From Candidatus Poribacteria bacterium (GTDB taxonomy: Bacteria; Poribacteria; WGA-4E; WGA-3G), in NCBI GenBank assembly GCA_965214095.1, contig OZ243938.1, positions 2,176,001 to 2,240,000 of the forward strand: a stretch of DNA of 64,000 nt. Reading direction: 5' to 3'. This document shows, in pieces, positions 1 to 15,775 of the stretch; the first letter of the stretch is position 1, and every line of letters starts with the position of its first letter. Both the position numbers and the translations under genes were made by a program. The notes beneath the pieces are model-generated. The model saw nothing but the letters and a program-made list of their open reading frames with translations, had not been told where the DNA came from and did not search any database.

Positions 1-3000
1 GTAACAGCAATGGTATCAACGCCACCCCTATTATCACGAACGGTGATGGTAACTGAATAAGATGCCTTATCTTCACGGTCAAGTGCTGACTTCGTCTTTA
101 ACTGACCTGTTCCGTCATCAATATCAAACGATGCATCGTCTGTCCCACCAAGACTGTATGTGAGGGTATCCCCGTCTTGGTCTGTTGCGGATACTTGGTT
201 TCCGATATTCTGATTAGCCGCGGTATTTTCAGCAACGGAACGTGTTATGCTTGCCCCTTCTGTAAATACTGGCGCATCATTTTGATTGCTGATATTGATG
301 GTAACATCAATAGAATCACTGCCGCCTCTGTTGTCTGTGACAGAAACAGAAACAGAATAGGTCGCTTTCGTTTCAAAATCCAGAGCATCCTTTGTTTTGA
401 TCTGTCCAGAACTATCATCGATATCAAACGATGCATCATCTGTCCCACCGAGACTGTATGTGAGGCTTGTGTCATCCTGATCAGTCGCGGCGACTGGCGT
501 GCCGATATTTTGATCAGCCGCGGTATTTTCAGCAACGGAACGGGTTGTGCTTGTGCCATCGCTAAATATTGGAGCATCATTCACATTGCTGAGATTGATG
601 GTAACATCAATTGAATCGCTACCCCCATTATTATCGGTGACAGATACGGTAACGGAATATCTCGGTTTCGTTTCAAAATCCAGCGGTGTTTTTGTTTTGA
701 TCTGTCCAGAGGTATCGTCAATATCAAACGATGCAGCATCTGTGCCGGTAAGACTGTAGTCCAATGTATCGTCATCCGCATCCTCAGCGGCGACTGGCGT
801 GCCTACATCGGTATCTGCTGGACTGTTTTCAGCTACGCTGCGGGTTGTCGTCGCGCCATCCGTAAATGTAGGCGCATTATTTCCAACAATTACCTCTGTG
901 ACTTCAATGGTGACAGCAATGCTATCACTACCGCCTCTGTTATCTGTAACAGACACAGTAACAGAATGGGTCGGTTTATTACTAAAATCAAGTGCGGATT
1001 TCGTTTTCAATTGCCCCGTGCCTGTGTCAATGTCAAACGAAGCAGCATCTGTGCCAGCAAGACCATAAGTCAGGTTACTGTCATCCTGGTCAGTCGCAGC
1101 AACTGGCGTGCCGATATTTTGATCAGCCGCGGTATTTTCAGCAACGGAACGGGTTGTGCTTGTCCCATCGCTAAATATTGGAGCATCATTCACATTGCTG
1201 ATATTGATGGTAACATCAATTGAATCGTCACCCCCATTGTTATCGGTGACAGATACGGTTACCGAGTATCTCGGTTTTGTTTCAAAATCCAGCGGAACTT
1301 TTGTTTTGATCTGTCCAGAACTATCATCAATATCAAACGATGCAGCATCTGTGCCGTTCAGACTATAAGTCAAAGTATCGTCATCCGCATCCTCAGCGGC
1401 AACTGGCGTGCCTACATCGGTATCTGCTGGACTGTTTTCAGCAACGATTCGGATTGCTGTCGCACCATCCGTAAATGTCGGTGCATTGTTTCCAACAATT
1501 ACCTCAGTGACTTCAATGGTCACAACAATGCTATCACTACCGCCTCTGTTGTCTGTGACAGATACAGTGACAGAGTGTATCGCTTTATTGTCAAAATCAA
1601 GTGCGGATTTCGTTTTCAATTGACCCGTGCCAGTGTCAATGTCAAACGATGCAGCATCCGTGCCACGAAGACTGTATGTGAGGTTTGCGTCATCTTGGTC
1701 AGTCGCAGTAACCGGACTACCGATATTGGTATTTGCTACGGCATTTTCTGGAACGGAACGGGTCGTGCTTATCCCTTCTGTGAATATCGGTGCATCGTTC
1801 ACATTAGAGACGGTTATCGTAACAGCAAGGGTGACAATACCACCGTTGTTATCATCAGCAGACACCACAACCGAATACGATGCTTTCATCTCATGATCAA
1901 GCGCATCCTTCGTTTTCAATTGACCGTTGTTTGGGTCGATGTCAAAGGATAACGCATCCACCCCACTGAGACGATAAGTCAGATTATGCCTGTCTTCATC
2001 CGTTGCAGAGACTGGCGTGCCGATATTGAGATTTGCGTTCGTATTTTCAGCGATGGTGCGCGAAACCGAACCCGATTCTGAAAACACCGGCACATCATTC
2101 TCATTCGTAATGCGTATTTCAACATCAATAGAAGTTGTTCCACCTCTATTATCAGTCGCCGTGATGATGACAGCATATAACGGCTTCGTTTCAAAGTTTA
2201 AGGCATCCTTCGTTCGCAATTGACCGCTTGTGCTATCTATATTAAAGTGCGTTTGATCTGTGCCACCGAGCAGATACGTCAGACTACTATCGTCATCATC
2301 CGTTGCTGCGACCGGTTCACCGATGTTAATTCCTGGTCCCGCATGCTCACGGATGGTGCGGGTTGTGTCCGTGCCATCAGCAAAAGCAGGCGAATCATTG
2401 TCATTCGTCACGTTGATTGTCACGGTGATCCTATCACTCTGATTATTGTCGCTCACGGTTACTATGACAACATATTGCGAATCATCTTCAAAGTCAAGTG
2501 GCGCAAGCGTTTTCAGTTGTCCCGAGTTCGCATCAATGCTGAATGAAGCCGCATCGGTGCCACTTAATACATACCGTAACTGATCACTATCGTCATCCGT
2601 CGCATAGATAGGATTGCCGATGTTTGTATTGGGTGCTGAGTTTTCTGCGATGGTACGGATTGTGCTGGTGCCCTCCGTAAATTCAGGGGCATTGTTAGAA
2701 GGCGTTTCATTGACATTGATTACGGATATCGTCACCGTGGTAGTGTCAGTTCCCTGCTTACTATCGTCCACGGTTATAGTTACCGAATAACGTGGTTTTG
2801 TTTCAAAATCCAAAGCTGAAAATGTGCGTAATTGACCAGTATCTGAATCAATACGAAATGCACTGCCGTCCGTCCCACTAAGGCTATAGATCAAAGTATC
2901 ATTGTCAAGATCCGTAGCAGAAACAGGACTACCGATAGCAACACCCGCGAGGGTATTTTCAGGGATTGAACGTGTTGTACTACTGCCTTCTGTGAACACT

Positions 3001-6000
3001 GGCGCGTTGTTCGTATATCTGAGTGTAATAACAACCGTAGTAGACGTGCTACTGCCGCTGCTATCGGTTACAATCACCGTAAACGTATAAGTGGTTTTCG
3101 AGGTGAAGTCAACAGATTCATTTGTGCTAATCTGTCCAGTGGATTCATCAATATCAAAGTATGATGCATCATCGCCACCAAGACTATAGGTCAATGAGTC
3201 GTTATCTTCATCGTTAGCAGACACTGCTGAACCGATGTCAACATTGGCAGAGATCACATTATCTGTAACCTCAATCCGAATGCTGCCACCTTCTGAAAAC
3301 TCAGGTGCATCGTTCTCATCTGTAACATAGATAGTGACATTGATTGTCGCAGTTAGTTTATTGTCGGATACGGAAACAATGACGTTATACGTATTCCTAT
3401 CTTCATAGTTCAACGTTGCCCTTGTTCTCAATTGACCGCTCGTTCTATCAATGTCAAATAGGGACGCATCTGTGCTACTCAGGCTATAGATGAGGGTGTC
3501 GTTATTGACATCTGTTGCGGACACAGGCGTGCCGATATTCGAGCCAACAGAAGCGTTTTCCGACACAGACCGAGACGTAGCCGTTCCATCCCTGAATACG
3601 GGTGCACTATTGATAGGACCTTCCACGATGTCAGTAATAAGGATTGTCACTGTTATTCTATCCACACCCAAATTGCCATCAGAGACAGAAATGGTTACGG
3701 AATAGTTGGATTTACCCTCATAGTCAAGCGGTGCTTGTGTTCGCAACTGTCCCGATGAACTATCAATGCTAAACGATGCGGCATCCTGTCCACTGAGGCT
3801 ATATGTCAATGTATCGTTATCGGTATCTCTCGCAGACACGGGGTTACCGATATTGACACCCGAGCCAGTGTTTTCAGCAATGGAACGGGTTGATGCAGCA
3901 CCTTCAACAAAGACAGGGGCGCGGTTTTCATTCACATCTCGGATATATATCGTGATCGCGATTGAATCGCTCCCACCATTCCCATCCGACACAGTAACAG
4001 TCACAGAATGGGTGGTTTTGCGTTCATAATCCAAAGATGCCTTGGTATAGATTTGCCCCGTTGTGCTATCAATACTAAATAGCGATGCATCCACACCGCT
4101 GAGTTTATAGGTCAATGTATCATTATCAGCATCGGTTGCGAAAATTGGATTACCAATCTTCACGCCCGATGCTGTGCTCTCCTGTATCGTTCGGGTGGCG
4201 CGTACACCTTCTGTCAATACAGGGGAACGATTTGGCGGGGACTCAAACACATTACGGACAATGATAGCAACTAAAATAGATGCTTCTCCACTATGACTAT
4301 CGGACACAGAGATCGTCACAAGATATGTGGATTTTTCTTCAAAGTCAAGCGGTGCTAATGTGCTGAGTTGCCCCGTTGCACTATCTATAAGAAACGACTC
4401 GACATCTGTGCCACCGAGCGTGTATGTCAATGTGTCGCCATCCGCATCTGTCGCAGACACAGGTTCTCCGATCTTAACACCGAAGGCAGTATTTTCTAAT
4501 ACCGTGCGGGCAGTGCTATCTCCTTCAGTGAACACAGGGGCATCGTTCGTGGCAACCTCATCTACATCAAGAATAAACACTTGAACAGTTATATTTTGAT
4601 TCGGATTCATACCGTCAGAGACGGATATGATGACTGAGTAGCTTGATTTGCTTTCATAATTTAACGGTGCGAGTGTTAGCAATTGCCCCGTTTCCGTATC
4701 AATGTTGAAAGCAGCAGCATCCTCGCCACTGAGCGTATAGGTCAAGGTGTCACCATCGGAATCCGTTGCAGATATCGGTATTCCAATATTTTCGCCTGCA
4801 TCCGTATTTTCAGACGCATAACGGAATGCTGTTCTCCCATCGCTAAATATAGGGGGTTTGTTGTCAAATACGTCTGTGATTGTAATCGTGACACGGATGC
4901 TATCTCTGGCGTTATATATATCCATCACAGAAACGAGAACTGAATACGATCTTTTGCGTTCAAAATCAAGCGGTGCGCGTGTTCGCAACTGTCCCGTTGT
5001 GGTTTCTATGTCAAATATCTCAGCATCTTCACCAGTGAGACGATAGGTGAGGGTATCCTCTTCCGCATCTGTCGCGGTGATAGGGCTGCCGATAGCACTC
5101 CCAGCAGCGGTATTTTCAGCAACAGAACGAGTCGTGTTCATACCCTCGGTAAATATAGGTGCAGTATTGAAACGCGGGATAATTTCTAATTGATAGTCGC
5201 TACCTTTTACAAGCACATACCCTCTATGTAATAGGGGTATAGTCGGCATCTCGCCTAATTCTACAGAAACAGGCTCCTTTGTGCCGGCATCGCGAGTTAC
5301 AGAGAACGGTCTACTTTCAACACTCCCCATCGGCAGTGCGATAGAAGTGATGCCGTCCTCAATTGTGCCATTCTCTATGCTAATCGGCACCTCAATGTCA
5401 AACGGGGCACCCGCAGGGATAATCACGTTGAATGTGCCATCCGCTAGTTTCTCTAATGAGACTGTGAGCGATAGCGGATCTACGCTGTTACCACTCAAAT
5501 CAAGCTCCTTCAGAGAGACCAGCCTGTAGAAAAGACCTTCAGGAAGTTCCTTAATCTCATTGTCTTTTAACGAAAGCGTGGAAAGTGAAAGCATCCCTCT
5601 GAAATCATAGCCTGTGAGTGAAGGAATATCCATATTACTCAGGTCAAGTGCCGTTATCTTCGCAAGGTCAATGTCTGTTATGTTATAGCAATCGGTAACA
5701 TGCGGAACCATCATATTGATCGCATCTGCGACCTGTTTTGTGCGATTACAAACGGTTGATTTCGCGATGACATACCCGAAGTGACCTACAGGTATTCTCG
5801 GCAAAACACCGAAAGTCACATCAATTTCAGCGGATGACTCCGCAACAAAGATGGAACTTATCAAACTCCCTTTCGGTATAGTTACCATAAGCCTTGAAGT
5901 CGTTACCAAACCGTGTTTTATTTCAATCGGGACAACTATATCAAAAGGTGCCCCCGTAGGCACGAAGGCTCGATATTTGCCTTTACTCTCCTTTAGCATT

Positions 6001-7982
6001 GAGACAACCAGCGGGAACGGTTCAAGCGTGTTTCTTCCAAGTCGTAACTTTTTCAGGGACGTTAACCCTTCAAAGATGCCGAAAGGAAGTGAAGTCAGTT
6101 GATTGTCGTGCAGATTGATACTTTCTAAACCTGTCAAGCCGGAGAAATCTCCGATCTTGAGTGCTGTCAGCCCGCTTTCTCGTAGGACGAGTTCAGTGAT
6201 CGTTGCTAAATCCGCATCGGTTACTTCCTCCGCAGAATCGACATCCGGGAGTGCGTCAACAATCGCATCACGCACGGCAGGTGTCCGTTCACTTACAGGA
6301 ACTATCATCGGCACATAACCGATGTCATCCGTATTGATTAGAGCAATCAGCACACTGATACTATCAGAAACAGCACCATCCGTTACGAACACTTTCAGAA
6401 AACATACAGACTTCTTTTCATAATCCAGTGCGGATTTCGTCTTTATTTGTCCTGTTTCAGAATTGAGAGTAAATAGGTGTGCATCCGCGCCGTCTAAGGT
6501 ATAGGTCAAACTATCCTCGTCCATATCCGTCGCGGAGACAGCAGGACCGACATTAACACCGGAGGGTGTATTCTCTGGAATCCTACGAATAGCAAACGCA
6601 CCTTCAGGAAACACGGGTGCCCTATTTGTAACCACATCAATAATGACGATTATAGTATCTGTCAGACTACCATCTGAAACTGTAAGATTGAGATAATAGG
6701 TAGATTTGGTTTTGTAGTCTACAGCGGGTTTTGCTTTCAATTGTCCCGTTGCGGTGTCAATATCAAAAAATGCAGCATCTGCACCGTCTATGCTAAACGT
6801 CAAAGTATCTTTATTCGCATCCGTTGCGGAGACAGGTTCACCGATGGCAGTGCCTGCTATGATGTTATCTGATATTGACCGCCTGGCAATTTCCCCTGAG
6901 AATACGGGTGCTTTGTTTTCTGGCACTTCAATGACAACAACGATTTCGTCTGTTAACTTACCATCAGATACTTTCAGCGTTAGATAATAGGATGACTTGA
7001 CGGTGTAGTCTGTTGATGCTTTCGCTTTCAACTGTCCGTTTGTTGTATCAACATCAAATAGGGCAGCATCCTGTCCACTCAAACTATAGGTGAGTGTATC
7101 ATTTTCAGGATCTGTCGCAGATATAGGTTCCCCGATATTTTCACCCGCCGCTATATTCCGTTTCAAAGAACGCATGGCGATGATACCTTCGCTGAACTCT
7201 GGTGAGGTATTCGGTTCAACTTTCAACACGAGCGGGAGGAGGTCAGACTTGCGGAGATAATACCCAAGATGGATTGCTGGTAACCTTGATAAGGTACTGA
7301 TGTCTACAGATATTTGCTGCGTGGTGCCGGGTGTGCGAGTTACCGTGATGGTTTCGCTGTATAATTTACCGATGGGTATTTTCAGGTTGAACGTATCTCT
7401 CGGCACAGTGCCGCCAGTGATTGTCACGGACACTGTGATATTGAAAGGCGCGCCGGTGGGCATTTCCGCTCTAAATTGGTCGTTTTCAACCGATTTTAGC
7501 GAAACAGCAATCGGAAAAGGACGCAGCAGATTCTGGCTTAATCGCAATGTTTGTAAGGATGTCAAGCCTTCAAATATCTTCGCGGGTAAACGTCTCAATT
7601 TATTGTTAGATAGATTGAGATTTTTCAGTCCTGTTAACCCTGAGAAATCTCCCGTTTTCAATGTAGAGATGTTCTTTGATGCGAGTGTCAGTTCTTGAAT
7701 TTTAGTGAGATGTGTTTCATTTATATCTTCCGCGGCACTCACATCCGGCACGGCTGCAACGATGGCATCTCGTACCTGTTGTGTGCGGTCACTTACCGGT
7801 GTAATGTCAGCATATCCTATATGATTTATGGACAGACCTATCAGCAGGAGTGCCAGAAAGGATATGGTGCTTATTCTATTCAGACTGAGGTTTCGTTGAT
7901 TTGGGTTGTTTGGGTTTACAGAATTGGTTTCTTTTAATTTTTGTTTTTCTTTATTTATATTAATTGTTTTCTGTAAATTCAA
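1..7982 (-). CDS. Giant secreted adhesin-like protein: 3 leucine-rich-repeat modules and about 20 cadherin-like repeats; 3' end lies outside the window
   Basis: Absent from the ORF track because there is no stop in the window. My manual translation reads in the same frame at both ends. TTG start at 7982 after AAGGAGA; hydrophobic signal segment (SFLALLLIGLSINHIGYA/D); LRR blocks (GDFSGLTGLKNLNLSNNKLRRLPAKIFEGLTSL); repeated NxAPxFxEG..RSVAEN..IGxPVxATDxDxDxLTYSLxGxDAxxFDID..GQLxTKxxLDFE units. Confidence 0.9.
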   Translation of the reverse strand, partial: MNLQKTININKEKQKLKETNSVNPNNPNQRNLSLNRISTISFLALLLIGLSINHIGYADITPVSDRTQQVRDAIVAAVPDVSAAEDINETHLTKIQELTLASKNISTLKTGDFSGLTGLKNLNLSNNKLRRLPAKIFEGLTSLQTLRLSQNLLRPFPIAVSLKSVENDQFRAEMPTGAPFNITVSVTITGGTVPRDTFNLKIPIGKLYSETITVTRTPGTTQQISVDISTLSRLPAIHLGYYLRKSDLLPLVLKVEPNTSPEFSEGIIAMRSLKRNIAAGENIGEPISATDPENDTLTYSLSGQDAALFDVDTTNGQLKAKASTDYTVKSSYYLTLKVSDGKLTDEIVVVIEVPENKAPVFSGEIARRSISDNIIAGTAIGEPVSATDANKDTLTFSIDGADAAFFDIDTATGQLKAKPAVDYKTKSTYYLNLTVSDGSLTDTIIVIIDVVTNRAPVFPEGAFAIRRIPENTPSGVNVGPAVSATDMDEDSLTYTLDGADAHLFTLNSETGQIKTKSALDYEKKSVCFLKVFVTDGAVSDSISVLIALINTDDIGYVPMIVPVSERTPAVRDAIVDALPDVDSAEEVTDADLATITELVLRESGLTALKIGDFSGLTGLESINLHDNQLTSLPFGIFEGLTSLKKLRLGRNTLEPFPLVVSMLKESKGKYRAFVPTGAPFDIVVPIEIKHGLVTTSRLMVTIPKGSLISSIFVAESSAEIDVTFGVLPRIPVGHFGYVIAKSTVCNRTKQVADAINMMVPHVTDCYNITDIDLAKITALDLSNMDIPSLTGYDFRGMLSLSTLSLKDNEIKELPEGLFYRLVSLKELDLSGNSVDPLSLTVSLEKLADGTFNVIIPAGAPFDIEVPISIENGTIEDGITSIALPMGSVESRPFSVTRDAGTKEPVSVELGEMPTIPLLHRGYVLVKGSDYQLEIIPRFNTAPIFTEGMNTTRSVAENTAAGSAIGSPITATDAEEDTLTYRLTGEDAEIFDIETTTGQLRTRAPLDFERKRSYSVLVSVMDIYNARDSIRVTITITDVFDNKPPIFSDGRTAFRYASENTDAGENIGIPISATDSDGDTLTYTLSGEDAAAFNIDTETGQLLTLAPLNYESKSSYSVIISVSDGMNPNQNITVQVFILDVDEVATNDAPVFTEGDSTARTVLENTAFGVKIGEPVSATDADGDTLTYTLGGTDVESFLIDSATGQLSTLAPLDFEEKSTYLVTISVSDSHSGEASILVAIIVRNVFESPPNRSPVLTEGVRATRTIQESTASGVKIGNPIFATDADNDTLTYKLSGVDASLFSIDSTTGQIYTKASLDYERKTTHSVTVTVSDGNGGSDSIAITIYIRDVNENRAPVFVEGAASTRSIAENTGSGVNIGNPVSARDTDNDTLTYSLSGQDAASFSIDSSSGQLRTQAPLDYEGKSNYSVTISVSDGNLGVDRITVTILITDIVEGPINSAPVFRDGTATSRSVSENASVGSNIGTPVSATDVNNDTLIYSLSSTDASLFDIDRTSGQLRTRATLNYEDRNTYNVIVSVSDNKLTATINVTIYVTDENDAPEFSEGGSIRIEVTDNVISANVDIGSAVSANDEDNDSLTYSLGGDDASYFDIDESTGQISTNESVDFTSKTTYTFTVIVTDSSGSSTSTTVVITLRYTNNAPVFTEGSSTTRSIPENTLAGVAIGSPVSATDLDNDTLIYSLSGTDGSAFRIDSDTGQLRTFSALDFETKPRYSVTITVDDSKQGTDTTTVTISVINVNETPSNNAPEFTEGTSTIRTIAENSAPNTNIGNPIYATDDDSDQLRYVLSGTDAASFSIDANSGQLKTLAPLDFEDDSQYVVIVTVSDNNQSDRITVTINVTNDNDSPAFADGTDTTRTIREHAGPGINIGEPVAATDDDDSSLTYLLGGTDQTHFNIDSTSGQLRTKDALNFETKPLYAVIITATDNRGGTTSIDVEIRITNENDVPVFSESGSVSRTIAENTNANLNIGTPVSATDEDRHNLTYRLSGVDALSFDIDPNNGQLKTKDALDHEMKASYSVVVSADDNNGGIVTLAVTITVSNVNDAPIFTEGISTTRSVPENAVANTNIGSPVTATDQDDANLTYSLRGTDAASFDIDTGTGQLKTKSALDFDNKAIHSVTVSVTDNRGGSDSIVVTIEVTEVIVGNNAPTFTDGATAIRIVAENSPADTDVGTPVAAEDADDDTLTYSLNGTDAASFDIDDSSGQIKTKVPLDFETKPRYSVTVSVTDNNGGDDSIDVTINISNVNDAPIFSDGTSTTRSVAENTAADQNIGTPVAATDQDDSNLTYGLAGTDAASFDIDTGTGQLKTKSALDFSNKPTHSVTVSVTDNRGGSDSIAVTIEVTEVIVGNNAPTFTDGATTTRSVAENSPADTDVGTPVAAEDADDDTLDYSLTGTDAASFDIDDTSGQIKTKTPLDFETKPRYSVTVSVTDNNGGSDSIDVTINLSNVNDAPIFSDGTSTTRSVAENTAADQNIGTPVAATDQDDTSLTYSLGGTDDASFDIDDSSGQIKTKDALDFETKATYSVSVSVTDNRGGSDSIDVTINISNQNDAPVFTEGASITRSVAENTAANQNIGNQVSATDQDGDTLTYSLGGTDDASFDIDDGTGQLKTKSALDREDKASYSVTITVRDNRGGVDTIAV
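470..1659. repeat. Intragenic tandem duplication, period 609 bp (two cadherin domains)
   Basis: Sequence from 481 is near-identical to sequence from 1090; shadow ORF pairs 547/1156 and 799/1408 are each offset by 609. Ends are approximate. Confidence 0.85.
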
Positions 7983-8064
7983 TCATTTCTCCTTTATTAT
8001 GTTAGCCATAATGAGTCACAATTTATTTTTCATTACATTAAACATATTTGTCCCTCCTGATATT

Positions 8065-8094
8065 ATTATATATTAGTATATCATTTATTGTCAA
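8065..8094 (-). promoter_or_regulatory. Sigma70-type promoter of the adhesin gene
   Basis: TTGACA (8094-8089), 18 nt spacer, TATAAT (8070-8065) on the minus strand. Confidence 0.6.
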
Positions 8095-8343
8095 ACATTT
8101 TTTATTATTGTTTGGTGTAGAATTTCGGATGTGTGCGGAGCATGTCCGAGGCGTGGCACGGAGACACTGCGCAACGATGTGTGGACTGTTTATCCCTAAA
8201 TTGATGTTTGTGGTAAAATCGGAAAGTCCTGAAAATCCTGGTTCAGACAAAATCCCTGAAAATCCGAGATTCATATACAACCCTTGCATTCAATAAAGTA
8301 GAGTTCAAGATTATCTCCATCACAACACAGAAACAGAAAAATT

Positions 8344-8478
8344 GTATATCTACATGAAGATTAAGAAATAAATCAGGTAATTTCCTTGAGAAGTCCAGTG
8401 CGGTTAGGAAACCGCACCTACCGGGTTTGGGTAAATGAGAATTACCCGTTTAATAAATTAATCTTCATCAAGATATAC
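8344..8478. mobile_element. MITE-like element with 21-bp imperfect terminal inverted repeats, carrying a REP hairpin
   Basis: GTATATCTACATGAAGATTAA ... TTAATCTTCATCAAGATATAC; internal GTGCGGTTAGGAAACCGCACCTACC at 8398-8422. Confidence 0.6.
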
Positions 8479-8569
8479 CCAAAGCAGAAAATACATAAGC
8501 CAAACAAATTGTCCCCCGTGTCCCCTTATCTCTCGGCTCAGAGAACCTTGACCTTGCAAAAGAAACATT

Positions 8570-9114
8570 CTTACAACGCGGATTTGCTTATATCCGACAA
8601 GAGGACGATATTCACCGATGGACACAATCTGAATAAGCGGATCGTCCAGGTTGAATTGGAACGATTGACGGATAGACGGATCGTTTTGATAGCAGGCGCG
8701 CCACTTCCCAACATCACAAACAGACAGGAAACTGCCATCTTCGACTGGGAAGATTTTGAGATCGCAGGCGGATTAGATAAACTCCTTGAAATCATCGCAA
8801 TACGCGAACGTTTTGAACAGGAACGCGAAAACCTAACAGCAGACTCCAGCAGAGAGGAAGTGCAACGCGTATTGGAGTGTTCTCAAAGACAAGCAAACCG
8901 CGTCTTGCAAAGACTTAGAGGTGGGAATATCCCACGTAAAACCTTCAAAGAGCAAATCCTTTCTCTCCTCACGGATGGCGAGAAAAAAACAGCCGAAATC
9001 ACCGCTGCCATTGACGGACATCCAGAAGCGATACAACACGAACTCACCCGCCTTGTAGAGGCAGATGAAATTGTCAGAATCCGCCGCGGTGTATATGCAT
9101 TACCAAAACAATAG
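8570..9114 (+). pseudogene. Probable 3' remnant of a larger gene ending in a winged-helix (AbiEi-antitoxin-like) domain
   Basis: The predicted start (8386) lies inside a repeat element and there is no good RBS/ATG. The C-terminus EQILSLL..KTAEITAAI..ELTRLVEADEIVRIRRGVYALP is wHTH-like. The 5' boundary is approximate. Confidence 0.5.
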
Positions 9115-9254
9115 CGTAATACAACGCTATTTAATGTTGAAGCCACCCATGCAAAATATTATCCACTGTAGGTCCGGTTTCCTAACCTCATCCACAGTGG
9201 ATAGAAAAGCGGGACACGGATGCCCCGCATTACAATGATTGACGGTATTTGCAC

Positions 9255-9950
9255 TTATCGGGAGTTCTTGATGCCTCCCCATGTCGTTGTGAGCTTAGCT
9301 TTAGGGTCTACGGGATAACTATCGTCGCCGAAGAACTCAATCTCGCCAATTTGAAAGTACGCCCCACCCGGGTTCGCTACGGTGTTAAAAGTAACATGCC
9401 GAAAAAACCGATACCCGACTTTTTGAACATCGAAATCTTCTCCTGCATCAAAACGGACGACTTGCAGTCGCTGATCCCAAAAACTATCGCCGTCGTGAGA
9501 AAAGATGGTTGTAAACTCCTCACCATCGTTAGAGCCCTGAATTTCCCACTCTATAGGATCCCTTGCAGGAGTATCGTTCGCTGAAGATACGGTGAAGTGT
9601 GTCAATGCGTATATCTCATCAAACTCAGCTGTTATATGTAGGCCTTCCTCCGGAATGCCTCCAGCAGGTCCTCAGCACCACTTAGCATTGCCGCCACCAA
9701 GTATGTTATCAAAGACGTTAAACGCAGATTCACCGCCTCCGAATCCGGGTTCATCGTTAGCAGTGAAGATGGCGTTGTAACCTTCATCTGCATCCGCCGC
9801 GCCATCGTCTTCTGGGTCTGTTAGGTCACCGCCAAGCAGTGATTCCGTACCTACTCCCAAGATTTCCTCCGCCTGGGCTATCTGGCTTGTGCCGACAACA
9901 AAAAGTGCCATCATCAACACAAAACCCGCTAATACCACAATATTTTTCAT
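9255..9950 (-). CDS. Secreted discoidin/F5-8 type C-like protein with in-frame UGA (putative selenoprotein, 231 aa)
   Basis: ORFs 9672..9950 and 9255..9605 are in the same frame, joined by TGA (9674-9672) plus 22 sense codons. Signal peptide and RBS AGGAG; motif SSANDTPARDPIEWEIQGSNDG..YRFFR..FQIGEIEFFG; C-terminal KLTTTWGGIK. Confidence 0.8.
9640..9660 (-). promoter_or_regulatory. Candidate bacterial SECIS hairpin
   Basis: AGGC-A-UUCC-GGA-GGAA-G-GCCU begins 11 nt after the UGA; the apical loop starts with G. Confidence 0.6.
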
Positions 9951-10128
9951 TATGTGTGATCTCCTCTAAAGAAATGAATCTCACGTTTACGTGAGTTCAA
10001 ATTAATTGTATGTATTATAACTAATCTTTACTAATCTATTTTCCATCGTAACAAATTACCAAAAATTAGTCAATATTATTTTTGAAGGTGCCAAGATTGT
10101 TTAGTTATCGGTTTTTGTTCAATATTAT

Positions 10129-10413
10129 TCACAACAACTTCGCAAAAATCATGTAACGGAACATCAAAATGCAGGGCACACTCACAAATACCACAACATT
10201 CGCAAAAATCTCATATCTTCTCACATCATGGTGAGGTTTCATCTGTTTCCACCGGGTGATGAACGCCGATGCACCACCCCATATCCCAAGACATATACCA
10301 ACATCGCAAATAATAAGGTTCATACCGCTTGTAATGAACTTCAGCAGAAAACAGACAATCCCCAAACTCATTGACCAAGTGATGAGGAACGAGTCGGAAG
10401 TCAAAATAGACAT
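10129..10413 (-). CDS. Small hypothetical membrane protein
   Basis: 94 aa, three hydrophobic stretches, RBS AGGGGAG upstream of ATG. Confidence 0.5.
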   Translation of the reverse strand: MSILTSDSFLITWSMSLGIVCFLLKFITSGMNLIICDVGICLGIWGGASAFITRWKQMKPHHDVRRYEIFANVVVFVSVPCILMFRYMIFAKLL

Positions 10414-10861
10414 AACTCTCCCCTTTCCTGATACTTCACTATCAGTTCATAAATATTTTTGCCATATCTATGCAATATCCTTGCCAATTCAATAAACCCT
10501 ACTGTTATAGGGTTTATAAAGATCGCACACATAACATTCTGCCGTAACATACAAGTTATGCATACCTCCACACAATTTATGCATGTTGTATGAACAAATA
10601 TTGCGTGTTTTTCTGTTTTGAACAACAATATTTGCGTATTTCGTGCCTTGATGCCGTTACCTGATACCGCACGAAATGTGATGTCTGATTTGATGAAGTC
10701 CGTTACGTTTGTGTCAAAAACCATGTTGATGCTGAATGTACCGCTATGAACTGTTATGTAGTTGGTAATATTTGCGTTAATCATGGTAAGCCATATCCTT
10801 GATAAATCTGAAAGAATATGTGAAACTTAACAATATTTTCTAACACGATGGAGAGAGCAGC

Positions 10862-11386
10862 ATGAAATATTGCCATTATATAAGTATATTGTTAATTCCA
10901 TTTATTGCCTGTTATATGATGTTCGGGTGCGGTGAACCGACTGATACTGTGCTTGATGTGATGCAACCGACCGTTGTTGTGGACGACCCACCACCTACCA
11001 CGACACCAACTAATCCGAATTCTGTTGTGATAGAGATTAATACACCACCAGAAATTATTGATCGCGATCCTGATACTGAATTACCAGTGTTTGATACTGC
11101 GCGAGAAGCCATTAGGGACGATGACATTGACCAACATATAGATGATATGGATGTCTGGATTAAAGAGAACTGTGGTAAAGTTGTTCATACTGACCCGATA
11201 CTTCCTGTTCAGATTCTGTTCACCGACCGTGAGGAGCGAGATAGATATATAGATTTCATTCAAGAAGAACTGGAATACGTGAGAATTAATCCTGACGATA
11301 TGCATGAGGTTGACGGTGATATCTACTTTTTTCTCCGTTTTGAGGTCAATCGTGAAGAAGCAACGAAGCCTGAGAACTGTGAGTAA
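10862..11386 (+). CDS. Hypothetical lipoprotein
   Basis: Signal peptide ending MFG-C, Pro/Thr-rich linker, RBS GGAGAG. Confidence 0.7.
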   Translation: MKYCHYISILLIPFIACYMMFGCGEPTDTVLDVMQPTVVVDDPPPTTTPTNPNSVVIEINTPPEIIDRDPDTELPVFDTAREAIRDDDIDQHIDDMDVWIKENCGKVVHTDPILPVQILFTDREERDRYIDFIQEELEYVRINPDDMHEVDGDIYFFLRFEVNREEATKPENCE

Positions 11387-11521
11387 TTTGGTCTGTTTGT
11401 AGTCGCGCAATTTATTCCGTCTCTTCCATTCTCCGCGTCATCTGTGGCATCCGAAAAAATCAGGAGTCAGAATGAAATCGTGGTTGAAAACATTCCAACA
11501 CTGCTTTCATGTAAACACTTC

Positions 11522-12223
11522 CTACTGAGTTAATTCTTCGATTCTCCGTATTGCATCTTGAGCGTCCATATCTCGGTCTTCCACCATTTCCTCCACTACT
11601 ATCTCAGCTGCCTTTTCCCGTTTTATTATTGCGTCGAGTTCAGCGGATGCTTCCTTAGAATATTCTGAGAGTATTTCAAGGGCATCCTTTTTCCGCTCTC
11701 TTAGATCTTTCTGCTTCTCATTCATCTCACGGACAGCGTCAAAGTCTACAGGTCTTGCTGCCAGAATGGGTATAGACTCTTCAATTAATTCAGGAATTGC
11801 TAACTGTATCTCATCATACTCTTTTAGGGCTGCGGCAGCTTTGGGAGGTAGATTTTCTACGATGATGTCGCTGAATACTGGGTGGACAGTCACATTAGCT
11901 GTATTATCGGTTTCTTCAGGTGTGAGCGTGTCTATAGGTTGCGGTGTTTCACTGGGTTCCATTTCTCCATCTGTGTTGTCACTCCTCTTTTCAGATGTGT
12001 CTTTAGGTAGGTTGTCCAGTTCTACTGGTGTGCTTTTATCTGCCTTTTTCTGTTTTATAGACGCGGTTTTCGGTGATGTGTCCGGTTCTACTGATGTGTC
12101 ATTATATACATTTACCGGCTCAGCATTCATTACTTTGAGATAGTGATGTCGCCAAAATCCGATACCAGTAGCAACGATAGCAACGGCAATGAGAATTATA
12201 GTGAAACGAAATGTCTTTTTCAT
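11522..12223 (-). CDS. Hypothetical membrane-anchored protein
   Basis: N-terminal TM helix, acidic low-complexity linker, helical C-terminus; RBS AGGAAGG. Confidence 0.75.
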   Translation of the reverse strand: MKKTFRFTIILIAVAIVATGIGFWRHHYLKVMNAEPVNVYNDTSVEPDTSPKTASIKQKKADKSTPVELDNLPKDTSEKRSDNTDGEMEPSETPQPIDTLTPEETDNTANVTVHPVFSDIIVENLPPKAAAALKEYDEIQLAIPELIEESIPILAARPVDFDAVREMNEKQKDLRERKKDALEILSEYSKEASAELDAIIKREKAAEIVVEEMVEDRDMDAQDAIRRIEELTQ

Positions 12224-12370
12224 TTTTACCTTCCTTTTGTATCATTAACTGTTAGTATGTGCGATTAAAATTGCTTATACCGAACTCTAATATTATATGC
12301 TAACTTGACTATTGATTTCAATATATGTTCGTGGTCCCCTTTGTTGTAAGGTTTCAAACTCCGATGCATA

Positions 12371-12394
12371 GTAGTAGGCACACGCCGTGTGCCG
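12371..12394 (+). repeat. REP family 'GTAGTAGGCACAC-nnn-GTGTGCCG' (7 copies: 12371, 15824, 23748, 25153, 25358, 26710, 33892)
   Basis: GTAG-led palindrome GGCACAC/GTGTGCC recurring in intergenic regions in both orientations. Confidence 0.85.
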
Positions 12395-12397
12395 TTC

Positions 12398-12541
12398 TGT
12401 CTGAACCAGGATGGACAGAATTAGTAGATTTCCAGGATTAGAGACTGAAATATCAAAGTGCCATTCAAAAGATAAAGGTCAAACAGTAGATAGGGACATT
12501 GGAGTTCCAAACTCCTAATCCTGAAAATCCTGGTTCTGACA
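12398..12541. repeat. Inverted-repeat-bounded element, TGTCTGAACCAGG family
   Basis: Ends TGTCTGAACCAGG / CCTGGTTCTGACA; internal TATCAAAGTGCCAT..CAAAA..ATAAA.GTCAA shared with the copy at 23567-23744. Confidence 0.8.
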
Positions 12542-12551
12542 ATAATACCTT

Positions 12552-12580
12552 TTGACAAACCAATCTCAAAATTATATAAT
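12552..12580 (+). promoter_or_regulatory. Consensus sigma70 promoter of the FRG-TPR operon
   Basis: TTGACA (12552-12557), 17 nt, TATAAT (12575-12580). Confidence 0.8.
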
Positions 12581-12624
12581 AATCAGAAAACATACGCGGA
12601 GGATTACAATAGGCATAACACACA

Positions 12625-13398
12625 ATGAACACACCTATTCAAATAACAAACCTAAAAGATTACATTGACAAATTAAATGAAAGAGCAGAACCCGGAGTAA
12701 GTTATCTATATCGTGGACAAGAAAATGCAGATTGGTTAATCACCAGTAGTGGCTATCGACGTGTTTTACAAGAACAATCCGTTGCTGACACAAGAGTTTT
12801 AGCAGTATCGTTCGTCCGGTATCTGATACAGATAATTGATGAGGTGCGACTCAAATATCCGACTACCTATATGGATATGTCTCCAATGGAGTGCATGGCA
12901 CATCTGCAGCATAACAGAGTAGCTACAGGACTGATAGATTTCACATACAACCCACTTGTCGCACTCTGGTTTGCATGTGATAGGCACGAGGATAAGGATG
13001 GAAAGGTTTTTGTATTAGAAAACGATAGTGATAAAATTGAAGAAATAAAACGAATAATTGACCTTCAACAGAACCTTGATGTGTTGTTTGATATGAATCA
13101 ACCGAAGTGGTATCTCTGGACACCGACTTTGGACAGTAATGTCGTAGATACGCAACGGATGACGATACAGCAGTCTGTATTTCTATTCGGTTTGCCTGTG
13201 GTAACTGCCGAAATGAAAATGCAAGAAATAGTCATCTCTTATCAACATAAAGAACTAATAAGAAGTGAATTGGACAATATGGCAATTTCAGAAATAACAT
13301 TGTTCTCAGATCTACTCGGTTTCTTTGAAAGAAACACACATGCACACCCATACGATCTTCCACCTAACACATCAGATGAAGGAGAAAATCAGCAATGA
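12625..13398 (+). CDS. FRG domain protein
   Basis: YLYRGQ, LQHxxxATGLIDFTxNPLVALWFAC and RMxIQQSVF motifs. Confidence 0.9.
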   Translation: MNTPIQITNLKDYIDKLNERAEPGVSYLYRGQENADWLITSSGYRRVLQEQSVADTRVLAVSFVRYLIQIIDEVRLKYPTTYMDMSPMECMAHLQHNRVATGLIDFTYNPLVALWFACDRHEDKDGKVFVLENDSDKIEEIKRIIDLQQNLDVLFDMNQPKWYLWTPTLDSNVVDTQRMTIQQSVFLFGLPVVTAEMKMQEIVISYQHKELIRSELDNMAISEITLFSDLLGFFERNTHAHPYDLPPNTSDEGENQQ

Positions 13399-14603
13399 CA
13401 GACATACAATCCCGCACAGATAATAAATTCAGAAAATATTTCGACTACGCAACTGATATGTTAGTAAGAAAACAATACGATGAAGCTATTGCAAATTACA
13501 ACAAGGCAATTAGGCTTATTCCAGACGATGAAAAATTATTTAGAGAAAAATCATATAGTTTTCTTGGTCTCGCTTTCTATGAGAAGGGCGAACCTGATCG
13601 TGCTATTGAATTCTACAACAAATCATTAGAACTCATACCTGACAATGCGGATGTATTGTACTATTTTGGTAATGCATACTTGGCAAAGGGTGAGGTTGAC
13701 ATTGCCCTTGACTACCTCAACAAATCATTAGAACTTGATCCTTATAGTTCTAATACATACAGCAGTCGTGGGAATGCCTATCTACAAAAAGGTCAGGAAA
13801 ATCTCGCTATCACTGACTATACCAAAGCATTAGAACTCAGATACGACAATACCAAAGCCCTACAGAACCGGGCTGCTCTATACATCACGAGAAACGAGGC
13901 AGACCTTGCTCTGGCCGATCTCAACAAATTAGTTGAAGTCAGACCGAATCTTGCTGATGGATATTACCATCGGGGCATGGCACTGAAGTTGAAAGGGAAA
14001 CTTGACCATGCGATTGATGACTACACAAAAGCGATTAAACTCAAACCTGACTTTGTTGATGCCTATCTTGAACGTGGTATTGTCTATAATAAAAAAGGTG
14101 AGTTTGACCCAGCGATTATAGATTTTGAGAACGCAATTGAACTCGATCCGAGTAACTTCAAAGGGTATAACAACAGAGGGATTGCCTACAGAATAAAACG
14201 GGAATACGACCTTGCTCTCAATGATTTTAACAGAGGAATTGAACTTGACGCTGATAACTTTAAACTTTATGTTAACCGCGGCACCGTTTACACTAACACA
14301 TCTGACTTTGATCTTGCAATCAATGATTTCAACAAGGCATTAGAACTCAATCCTAATGATCCTGTCGCTTATTACAATCGTGGAGTTGCCAACGCGTGCA
14401 AAGGTGAACTTGATACTGCCTATCAAGATTATACGAAAGCCATTGAGCTTTATCCAGATTTTGTGGAAGCGTATGCTGCGCGCGGGAAACTCCTCAAGAA
14501 AAAAGGTGAATTGAAAAATGCAATTGAAGATTTCAACAGAGTCTTAGAAATAAACAAGATTACTACAGAGGCTATATTGACCCCTTCCCAGTATTCAGCA
14601 TAA
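13395..14603 (+). CDS. Tetratricopeptide repeat protein (about 11 TPRs)
   Basis: 34-aa repeats AYxNRGxAYxxKGExDxAIxDFNKAIELxP; ATGA overlap with the FRG gene. Confidence 0.95.
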   Translation: MTDIQSRTDNKFRKYFDYATDMLVRKQYDEAIANYNKAIRLIPDDEKLFREKSYSFLGLAFYEKGEPDRAIEFYNKSLELIPDNADVLYYFGNAYLAKGEVDIALDYLNKSLELDPYSSNTYSSRGNAYLQKGQENLAITDYTKALELRYDNTKALQNRAALYITRNEADLALADLNKLVEVRPNLADGYYHRGMALKLKGKLDHAIDDYTKAIKLKPDFVDAYLERGIVYNKKGEFDPAIIDFENAIELDPSNFKGYNNRGIAYRIKREYDLALNDFNRGIELDADNFKLYVNRGTVYTNTSDFDLAINDFNKALELNPNDPVAYYNRGVANACKGELDTAYQDYTKAIELYPDFVEAYAARGKLLKKKGELKNAIEDFNRVLEINKITTEAILTPSQYSA

Positions 14604-14707: not shown

Positions 14708-15775
14708 ATGAAATATCCGATAAAAACACAAAAACGGATCCTCTTTATGTCCGTTGCGATAGTATTCTTGTTGGTCTCACTCCAAAATGTCAGTTTCGCT
14801 TTCGGAAAAAGCAAAATATATTGGACACAATGGAATACAATCAGTAGGGCAAATCTGGACGGATCCAACGTTGAAGATGTCATCACAGACCGTTATTTAC
14901 CAGAAGACATTGCGATAGACACACAGAACGGCAAGATATTCTGGATTGAAACGAATGTAGCCGAAGTCGACAACGTCAAACTTGGCACCGGCACAATACA
15001 CAGTGCAGACCCTAATGGTAAGAATATAAAAGAAATAAGCACAGGATATAAAGTTCCACTTGAGGGAGGAAATAGCGGACTGGATTGTTTTCATGGGGTA
15101 TGCAAAGGATACATCCAACCGGAAGGGCAACCAGAAGTTGAATTAGATCCTGAACAACTTTTTAATCCATTCTCCATCGCAATAGATACTGAGAAAAACA
15201 AAATATATTGGGTTGATGAATTTCATGACAACTTTCAACGTGCGAACATTGATGGATCCAAAGTTGAAAATATACGCGACATACGAGGCATAAGAAGAAA
15301 GGATATAGAATTAGATTTGAAGAGAAATAAACTATATTGGCTTTCAGGTAGTTCAATTAGAAGAATGGATGTTAATGGAGACCAGATTGAAGATATTATT
15401 GTAAGATGGAATCCATTTATATTAAACTTTGGTCTGGACGTGACAGCACAACATATCTATTGGACAAGTTCAAGTAGAGGCATAATCCACCGCTCGAATT
15501 TCAATGGAGGTGACATTCAGGAAATTGTCACAGATTTGAAAGAACCCTATCATATCATTGTTGACGCAGAATCACAAAAACTCTACTGGGCAAGTTGGGA
15601 TCGCCAGACAAGCCTCTACAAAATCCAACAAGCGAATCTCGACGGCACAGATGTCACAGATATCGTTACCGATTTACAGAGAATAAATGGACTCGCTTTA
15701 GATACAGCAGGCATATACAATGTTTCATCCAAGGATAAGCTAACAACGACTTGGGGAAACATAAAAGTTGAGTGA
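14708..15775 (+). CDS. Secreted YWTD (LDL-receptor class B-like) beta-propeller protein
   Basis: Signal peptide; repeats KIYWT..ISRANLDGSNVEDVIT, IAIDT..KIYW; C-terminal KLTTTWGNIK. Confidence 0.9.
   Translation: MKYPIKTQKRILFMSVAIVFLLVSLQNVSFAFGKSKIYWTQWNTISRANLDGSNVEDVITDRYLPEDIAIDTQNGKIFWIETNVAEVDNVKLGTGTIHSADPNGKNIKEISTGYKVPLEGGNSGLDCFHGVCKGYIQPEGQPEVELDPEQLFNPFSIAIDTEKNKIYWVDEFHDNFQRANIDGSKVENIRDIRGIRRKDIELDLKRNKLYWLSGSSIRRMDVNGDQIEDIIVRWNPFILNFGLDVTAQHIYWTSSSRGIIHRSNFNGGDIQEIVTDLKEPYHIIVDAESQKLYWASWDRQTSLYKIQQANLDGTDVTDIVTDLQRINGLALDTAGIYNVSSKDKLTTTWGNIKVE

Follow-up and report, generated by a model that had tools for sequence, protein, structure and literature searches.

A predicted secreted selenoprotein of lectin-type fold in Candidatus Poribacteria, with an in-frame UGA in place of an invariant cysteine

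The gene described here lies in a stretch of 64,000 nucleotides, referred to as the window, from a Candidatus Poribacteria bacterium (assembly GCA_965214095.1, contig OZ243938.1, positions 2,176,001 to 2,240,000). On the minus strand, window positions 9255–9950 translate as a single frame of 231 codons closed by TAA (9255–9257), whose sole internal stop is a TGA at 9672–9674, set in the residues ...LGGGNAKWC-[TGA]-GPAGGIPEEGLHITAEF... Sequence comparison makes it very probable that this is one intact gene for a selenoprotein of a new family, in which the UGA stands for selenocysteine (Sec; U in one-letter code), and neither two genes nor a pseudogene. Translation table 11 splits the frame into two open reading frames (ORFs), 9672..9950 (92 amino acids) and 9255..9605 (116 amino acids). 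In public collections the gene is likewise deposited as two separate proteins, and the C-terminal halves of its relatives are entered as 'hypothetical protein', Candidatus Poribacteria bacterium. The original prediction, made from the sequence alone, had joined the two ORFs into one 231-codon frame broken only by the TGA, and retranslation of 9255–9950 agrees.

The TGA stands where homologs have an invariant Cys. Among 5.8 billion proteins searched, 320 relatives were found; the top 120, which were inspected, are mostly uninterrupted, 226–235 residues long and 66–81% identical, and the few that are named come from Candidatus Poribacteria. The column of the TGA is Cys in 26 of 26 aligned homologs, within an invariant K-W-C-C-G, and both flanks of the in-frame UGA are conserved. 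These comparative-genomic criteria for bacterial selenoprotein genes follow passages of PMC12013277 and PMC13188914. The domain itself is widespread: a profile-free scan of 1.84 billion cluster representatives (50% identity) gave 1,618 matches at E ≤0.001 and 185 at E ≤1e-30, many of them in large multidomain proteins. When 165 near-full-length domain copies were cut from the 149 best matches, Cys-Cys was found straight after Lys-Trp in 156 and exactly two Cys were present in 130; the vicinal pair is therefore a hallmark of the domain subfamily. The expectation that homologs would carry Cys at the TGA, as KWCC, is thus borne out in close relatives and in distant copies. In the studied gene, Cys92 and Sec93 are the only thiol-type residues of the predicted mature product.

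The same TGA recurs well beyond this locus. The genome from which the window is taken (5.25 Mb in 4 contigs) holds the gene twice, in copies that share 74% identity and both have TGA at this codon. In the second copy (C1:635945-636613), which reads NAKWC-U-GPANLPAGG, it is the only in-frame TGA, and no Cys copy was found among the gene's matches in that genome (2 matches, both TGA). In a family sample of 101 genomes, 40 of which belong to one genus, g1 (39 plus the window genome), 28 of the matches listed carry an in-frame TGA, all of them in g1. With one exception these copies have TGC-TGA-GGN at exactly the studied codon: 27 copies from 22 species genomes, the preceding KWC being kept in 27/27. 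The same fetched loci hold 33 Cys forms, in which the codon is TGC or TGT. When 151 genomes were sampled across the phylum, close homologs appeared in two families only, and TGA forms again only in g1. The TGA is accordingly not private to one genome, a point on which the original prediction had hung its case. The exception among the 28 (L053, G014:C3:623242-623934, minus strand) is a Cys form whose TGA falls instead at the invariant Trp135 (...DPTE-TGA-EVQGS). That TGA looks like either an ordinary nonsense mutation or a sequencing error, and the copy provides a natural control for a random TGA in the homolog family.

Sec and Cys paralogs also occur in tandem, as 2–3 copies within ~3 kb, at L023 (G044), L054 (G084), L056 (G042), L062 (G038) and L071 (G046). 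Such copies may form a selenium-dependent and selenium-independent pair, or may reflect gene conversion between neighbours.

The letters at the codon are reproduced in other assemblies. Two samples (runs X1 and X3, word depths 247 and 147) gave contigs that match 9573–10000 with 0 differences, 9672–9674 included, the samples possibly being the source of the window. Contigs of relatives from RNA libraries bridge the site too: X18 record 15 spans 9559–9892 with 44 differences and X19 record 22 spans 9577–9791 with 22, and none falls at 9672–9674 among the rows listed. DNA can occur in RNA libraries; these contigs are only compatible with transcription of TGA-bearing relatives and are not used as evidence.

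A maximum-likelihood tree was built from 58 copies, two partial copies of fewer than 200 residues having been dropped. TGA forms appear in several clades, one of which, with 13 members and support of 100/100, consists of Sec forms throughout. At least three switches between Cys and Sec are forced by well-supported branches, and parsimony counts five. Across the 25 full-length TGA forms (299 of 300 pairs), the ratio of nonsynonymous to synonymous substitution rates (dN/dS) is 0.22 in the mature part upstream of the TGA vs 0.25 downstream of it, at a dS of ~0.5, and none of the 25 has a further stop or frameshift. Because the downstream ratio resembles the upstream one and no further stops have accumulated, the TGA forms are not decaying pseudogenes.

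Immediately downstream of the UGA the coding sequence can fold into a hairpin of the selenocysteine insertion sequence (SECIS) type. The reverse complement of 9640–9660 reads AGGC-A-UUCC-GGA-GGAA-G-GCCU; it starts ~11–12 nt past the UGA and its loop starts at 20 nt, exactly the sequence and position given in the original prediction. The published rules for bacterial SECIS (bSECIS) elements, as stated in passages of PMC13188914, comprise a loop of 3–9 nt, an upper stem of at least 4 bp, a G in the first two loop positions, a spacing of 16–37 nt and a minimum free energy (MFE) of at most -7.5, with a loop typically of the form N1-G-[G/U]-N-N2. The window hairpin agrees with all of them: loop GGA, stem 4+4 bp, spacing 20 nt, and an MFE of -11.8 for the 45 nt after the UGA. 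Two variants occur among the TGA forms. Proteins of the 231-residue type have GGC-A-UUCC-GGN-GGAA-G-GCC with the loop 20 nt after the UGA, and those of 225–227 residues have CCUUCC-GGC-GG(G/A)AGG with the loop at 17 nt.

What ties the hairpin to the TGA is the comparison with the Cys forms, whose peptide over this region is nearly identical. Over positions +10 to +42 the median MFE is -9.3 kcal/mol for the 27 TGA forms and -5.4 for the 33 Cys forms (p 1.8e-9 by a one-sided Mann-Whitney test, not corrected for relatedness). The codon after Pro ends in the loop-closing G in 27/27 TGA forms vs 6/33 Cys forms. Where the peptide IPEEG is encoded, all 9 TGA forms spell it ATT CCG GAG GAA GGC, which forms the hairpin, vs none of 11 Cys forms. 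A descriptor consisting of a C-G-closed G[G/U]N triloop with at least 4 pairs, 16–22 nt after the codon, was defined after the sequences had been seen. It matches 26/27 TGA forms of the gene, 1/33 Cys forms (the sister of a Sec form) and 515 of all 226,100 TGA trinucleotides of the genome (0.23%). The same descriptor matches 5 of 9 Prx-like selenoprotein genes of the window genome; in these five, 21 nt after a UxxC-type TGA, a stem of 6–7 bp carries a triloop (GGA, GGU or GUU) closed by C-G. Within the alignment 83.6% of cells are paired at the stem, vs 29–60% when the 3' partner is slid by 1–3 columns.

The organism is well equipped to read such a codon. The window genome encodes selA (616 bits), selB (355 bits) and selD (361 bits), all above curated cut-offs, and tRNA-Sec (78 bits) directly after selB; its selD has the customary in-frame TGA. 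All four components that the original prediction had proposed to look for are therefore present. Across the family sample selA was found in 96 of 101 genomes, and in 21 of the 22 species genomes with TGA forms. In-frame TGAs of Sec type, in UxxC or CxxU motifs, also occur in 9 of 26 AhpC/TSA matches and in a SelW-like gene (CxxU); the window organism is a heavy user of Sec with a rich selenoproteome of at least 13 genes with a Sec-type TGA. At G000:C1:4985955-4989585 (L003, L013, L081) selB has directly before it a Prx-like gene whose in-frame TGA lies in FYRGWWUPVC, and directly after it tRNA-Sec; selB and tRNA-Sec occupy C1:4987445-4989585. Elsewhere TGA is an ordinary stop, closing 446 of the genome's 2,226 open frames of at least 300 codons and, within the window, 9 of 36 of at least 200 codons, so there is no global recoding, as had been anticipated.

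Direct support exists for the frame, for the pairing of Cys with Sec, for conservation of the TGA and selection beyond it, for the association of the hairpin with the TGA, for the Sec machinery and for the fold, and it is highly likely that the gene genuinely encodes Sec. A number of observations nevertheless pull the other way. The Sec form turned up in a single genus. In one of the genomes with a TGA form, G058 (95% complete, 300 contigs), no selA was found, and the near-universal presence of selA in the family means that the machinery cannot discriminate Sec from Cys lineages. The covariation in the stem is weak: the core is invariant, and both partners vary in only 2 of 9 pairs, a count attained in 61 of 500 shuffles. 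The stem moreover overlaps a conserved peptide. Thus of the covarying hairpin envisaged in the original prediction, the hairpin is found in relatives and the covariation hardly so, and with an invariant core the support for the element rests on the contrast between Sec and Cys forms. That contrast uses a post hoc descriptor and sequences that are relatives of one another, and its statistics overstate independence. The selenium–sulfur ring proposed below, its position at the binding face and any ligand are putative. Finally, the case for selenium in the protein is entirely comparative.

This last point leaves room for a UGA that is used without Sec, and it is mostly there that the remaining doubt resides. 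The codon could be read through by a near-cognate tRNA (Trp or Cys), could receive Cys carried on tRNA-Sec when selenium is scarce, or could act as a regulated stop that releases mostly the 92-residue peptide and some full-length protein. UGA is the leakiest of the stop codons, and the frequent tandem arrangement of a Cys paralog with the TGA form (L023, L054, L056, L062, L071) fits dosage or conditional use. Such use is nonetheless improbable, as the codon replaces an invariant Cys and not a tolerant position, the window genome is without a Cys copy of the gene, and the hairpin has the position and loop of the genome's own SECIS elements and is missing from the Cys forms. A 92-residue product would also, according to the structure model, cut a single beta-sandwich in two. 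A nonsense pseudogene, in which the Cys codon TGC of a redundant paralog has mutated to TGA, would need one base change, and the homolog family does contain broken copies (L053, with TGA at Trp135, and G083, with an in-frame TAG); but 27 of 28 TGA-bearing copies share one codon across 22 species genomes and several clades, both copies of the window genome have it, and the sequence beyond it remains under constraint (dN/dS 0.25, with no further stop or frameshift in 25 full-length copies). This origin is very unlikely, and an error of sequencing or assembly at 9672–9674 would be more improbable still, given the identical X1 and X3 contigs, even if these may come from the source samples, and the same codon in 21 other assemblies. 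Both pseudogene and assembly error are effectively excluded.

The protein that the Sec reading yields has a recognizable fold. Its match to Pfam PF00754 (F5/8 type C) falls below the gathering score (26.3 vs 28.2 bits); many close homologs carry a precomputed PF00754 match, and distant multidomain relatives score 30–118 bits. No NCBIfam model matched the protein, and Rfam gave no match in window positions 1–14000. A first structure model, based on 27 close homologs, was discarded: its mean pLDDT, the per-residue confidence score of the predictor, was 56.6, and below 50 around the Cys-Sec site. AlphaFold2 was then supplied with a 47-row alignment that includes relatives of 40–60% identity, with Cys modelled in place of Sec, and gave a mean pLDDT of 89.3, at least 94 for approximately residues 29–210, and one beta-sandwich spanning the TGA. 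In this model a short strand comprises Trp91 and Cys92, and Sec93 begins a Gly-rich loop of 11 residues (93–103) that runs to the first long strand. Foldseek returned 253 matches in the Protein Data Bank (PDB) at E ≤0.001, led by the discoidin-like domains of 7nsn (a GH92 mannosidase), 4a44 and 2j1a. The probability was 1.0 to CBM32 modules, and 4a44 gave a TM score of 0.73 (target-normalised); 4a44 and 2j1a are CBM32 modules that bind galactose or N-acetylgalactosamine. The predicted eight-stranded beta-sandwich is superimposable on solved CBM32 modules. By sequence, 7nsn is the only clear match in the PDB, aligning with the C-terminal two thirds, and the KWCC region has no solved relative there.

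The fold is thus of the CBM32/discoidin type, an assignment that depends on the structure model: the discoidin-like domain named in the original prediction is upheld by model and Foldseek, and its Pfam F5/8 type C match stays sub-threshold. Distant relatives pair the domain with PA14, TSP3, PKD, cadherin-like, RTX, dockerin and LamG domains, company that is typical of extracellular adhesins and glycan binders. The N-terminus, MKNIVVLAGFVLMMALFVVGTSQIAQA before EE, resembles a signal peptide of the Sec export type when judged by eye.

At the other end of the protein, the model shows the final 18 residues (...VDPKAKLTTTWGGIKNSR) as disordered. They belong to a tail shared across the genome: 83 open frames of at least 80 codons, mostly 215–300 amino acids long, end in V-[DE]-P-x-x-K-L-T-T-T-W-G-x-[IL]-K. 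Shared so widely, the tail is probably a sorting or anchoring tag; it lacks a transmembrane helix, and in the studied protein it was matched by no model of Pfam or NCBIfam. PEP-CTERM, the name that some sources give to the Cys homologs, was considered and rejected. That signal consists of a PEP motif, a transmembrane helix and a basic C-terminal cluster (PF07589 / TIGR02595); there was no Pfam or NCBIfam match at E ≤1, and VDPKAKLTTTWGGIKNSR is without a hydrophobic helix. The tail also closes a further ORF of the window, 14708–15775 on the plus strand, which ends ...SSKDKLTTTWGNIKVE and contains an LDL-receptor class B repeat.

The features of the gene are collected in Table 1. Its surroundings include, just downstream on the same strand, a giant open frame of at least 2,660 codons (window 3–7982, minus strand, open at the window start), which has LRR_8 and eukaryote-type cadherin domains in its first 800 residues and is typical of the eukaryote-like surface proteins of sponge symbionts. 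Between this giant adhesin gene and the selenoprotein gene lies a 242-amino-acid ORF (8386–9114, plus strand), the C-terminus of which weakly matches an AbiEi antitoxin-type transcriptional regulator (26.2 bits, cut-off 25).

Table 1. Predicted features of the selenoprotein gene and its flanks, in window coordinates
Feature	Position	Strand	Basis
Whole predicted selenoprotein gene, 231 codons + TAA, read through one UGA	9255..9950	-	Translation; full-length Cys homologs of 231-232 aa
Putative signal peptide, codons 1-27, hydrophobic core, AQA then EE	9870..9950	-	Judged by eye; helix 2-19 in model
Cys92 codon TGC, first of the vicinal pair	9675..9677	-	KWC kept in 27/27 TGA forms
UGA predicted to encode Sec93, in the column of the second, invariant Cys of KWCCG	9672..9674	-	Translation, alignments
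SECIS-type hairpin AGGC-A-UUCC-GGA-GGAA-G-GCCU, apical loop GGA at 9649-9651	9640..9660	-	Folding, comparison, published bSECIS rules
CBM32/discoidin-like beta-sandwich (model), ~residues 29-210, spanning the UGA	9321..9866	-	AlphaFold2 model, Foldseek, 7nsn sequence match
C-terminal tail VDPKAKLTTTWGGIKNSR	9258..9311	-	Shared with 83 open frames of the genome; residues 219-231 pLDDT <50
Terminator-like G+C hairpin then T run, 27 nt past the stop	9209..9228	-	Consensus scan only
Ribosome-binding site AGAGGAGA, GGAG-type, ~10 nt before ATG	9960..9967	-	Read from sequence
Promoter-like hexamers TTGACT-17-TACGAT	10045..10073	-	Consensus match, no commoner than in shuffles

From these observations we infer the insertion of selenium, the export of the product, a selenium–sulfur bond and a ligand, which may be joined into the following scheme. 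The UGA at 9672–9674 would be recoded to Sec by the organism's own SelB and tRNA-Sec, directed by the hairpin in the coding sequence, an element of the same type as those of the genome's Prx-like selenoprotein genes. The N-terminal signal peptide would export the product, leaving a mature protein of ~22 kDa made up of one CBM32/discoidin-type, lectin-like domain and a short C-terminal tag, in which Cys92-Sec93 would replace the Cys-Cys pair that marks the domain family. As an exported protein with only two thiol-type residues, it should close the pair to an eight-membered ring: a vicinal disulfide in the Cys forms and a vicinal selenenylsulfide in the Sec forms, formed outside the cell at the start of the Gly-rich loop that follows the conserved Trp. 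We take Cys92 and Sec93 to lie at the binding face, on the general anatomy of discoidin domains, and there the ring could act as a ligand-contacting element, a redox-switching element, or both. Sec would speed exchange and resist irreversible over-oxidation.

The role of the pair can be read in three ways. The foremost, although somewhat short of an even chance, is that the pair makes a ring in the binding loop that contacts a ligand or has a structural part, and that may be redox-gated. Genuine redox activity towards thiols, disulfides or peroxides outside the cell is appreciably less likely, and a soft-metal site, by analogy with what has been proposed for several selenoproteins with a CU motif, a little less likely again. 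The more specific proposal that Sec is here used outside catalysis, the Cys-Sec ring serving as a ligand-contacting or redox-gated element of a secreted lectin, is tentative and rather doubtful. With regard to its general nature, the protein is not an ordinary redox enzyme; it is predicted to be a small secreted protein of sugar-binding type, from a sponge-associated bacterium, in which Sec almost certainly stands next to Cys.

Among known systems, mammalian thioredoxin reductase ends in Gly-Cys-Sec-Gly, a motif whose Cys-Sec can form an eight-membered selenenylsulfide ring. There the motif ends the chain of a cytosolic flavoenzyme, whose N-terminal CVNVGC/FAD centre reduces it. The likeness to the poribacterial protein is limited to the local Cys-Sec-Gly tripeptide, whereas the position differs: the motif here is internal (residues 92–94 of 231) and the protein is predicted to be secreted. 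Pfam and NCBIfam detected no flavin, flavoprotein or thioredoxin-fold domain in it. With the CBM32 and F5/8 type C modules (4a44, 2j1a, 7nsn) the protein shares the beta-sandwich and the motifs SaND..RDP..W..GSnDG..W and EIE.fG. It differs from them in the KWCC/KWCU signature and in a long acidic N-terminal extension (LTDPEDDG...) that aligns with no solved chain.

A catalogue published in 2026 lists 119 prokaryotic selenoprotein families and subfamilies, most of which, in the passages of that paper, are thioredoxin-fold or otherwise redox or metal proteins (PMC13188914). Its Table 1 contains no discoidin, F5/8 type C or carbohydrate-binding module family. The full text never mentions discoidin, lectin, Poribacteria, carbohydrate-binding, secreted or signal peptide, and that of PMC12013277 never mentions discoidin, lectin, Poribacteria, carbohydrate or secreted. 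A wider search of the literature for a discoidin or lectin selenoprotein found nothing relevant, supplements and subscription journals, which may list more, lying outside its coverage. The families with a CU motif named in passages of the catalogue (MerB-like SaoL, HgcA, CopZ-like 2Fe-2S protein form 2, SaoC, MbdU and KCU-star) resemble the present protein in having Sec right after Cys, inserted under the direction of a bSECIS element, and in having been found through Cys/Sec pairs. Several are thought to bind soft metals or organometals (PMC13188914). None of those described there has a discoidin/CBM32 fold, in contrast with the present case, where CU replaces a family-wide CC in an extracellular domain of lectin type. 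No metal-handling gene adjoining the selenoprotein gene was seen in the window.

Two further groups offer partial parallels. Vicinal disulfides are described, in passages of PMC12102755 that cite Richardson et al. 2017, as contacting the bare face of a sugar ring (arabinofuranosidase 1wd4), as stabilising, or as switching conformation. The adjacent Cys-Cys in a carbohydrate-binding context is the shared element; those passages hold no selenium analogue, and in the poribacterial protein ring and ligand contact are predicted ones. Selenoproteins that leave the cytoplasm are also on record: those predicted to be exported or in the outer membrane include, in the catalogue passages, DsbA-like and DsbG-like proteins, a thiol:disulfide interchange protein, an FCYXU TonB-dependent receptor, an MtrB/PioB-type barrel and SaoB/SaoX (PMC13188914). 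These are mostly thioredoxin-fold oxidoreductases, transporters and barrels, and none described there is a free-standing lectin-type module. The original prediction had called Sec in an exported lectin-like fold atypical. As far as the passages of the catalogue extend, this stands for the lectin-type module and has to be softened for exported proteins and CU motifs, which are both already catalogued.

The mechanism of recoding is therefore an ordinary one, and what is new is a selenoprotein family whose domain is secreted, of lectin type and not of the thioredoxin kind. A well-supported Sec in an exported module of CBM32 type that stands by itself widens the range of folds and compartments known to use selenium, and the side-by-side Cys and Sec versions provide a natural experiment on the choice of selenium over sulfur in a vicinal pair. 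The deposition of such genes as two split ORFs implies that the annotation of Poribacteria genomes undercounts selenoprotein genes. If the proposed role of the ring is correct, the protein would be the first carbohydrate-binding module to contain selenium, the Cys paralogs that lie in tandem in its relatives would be selenium-independent back-ups, and the glycan or matrix binding of a sponge symbiont would be switched by the extracellular redox state or shielded from oxidative damage.

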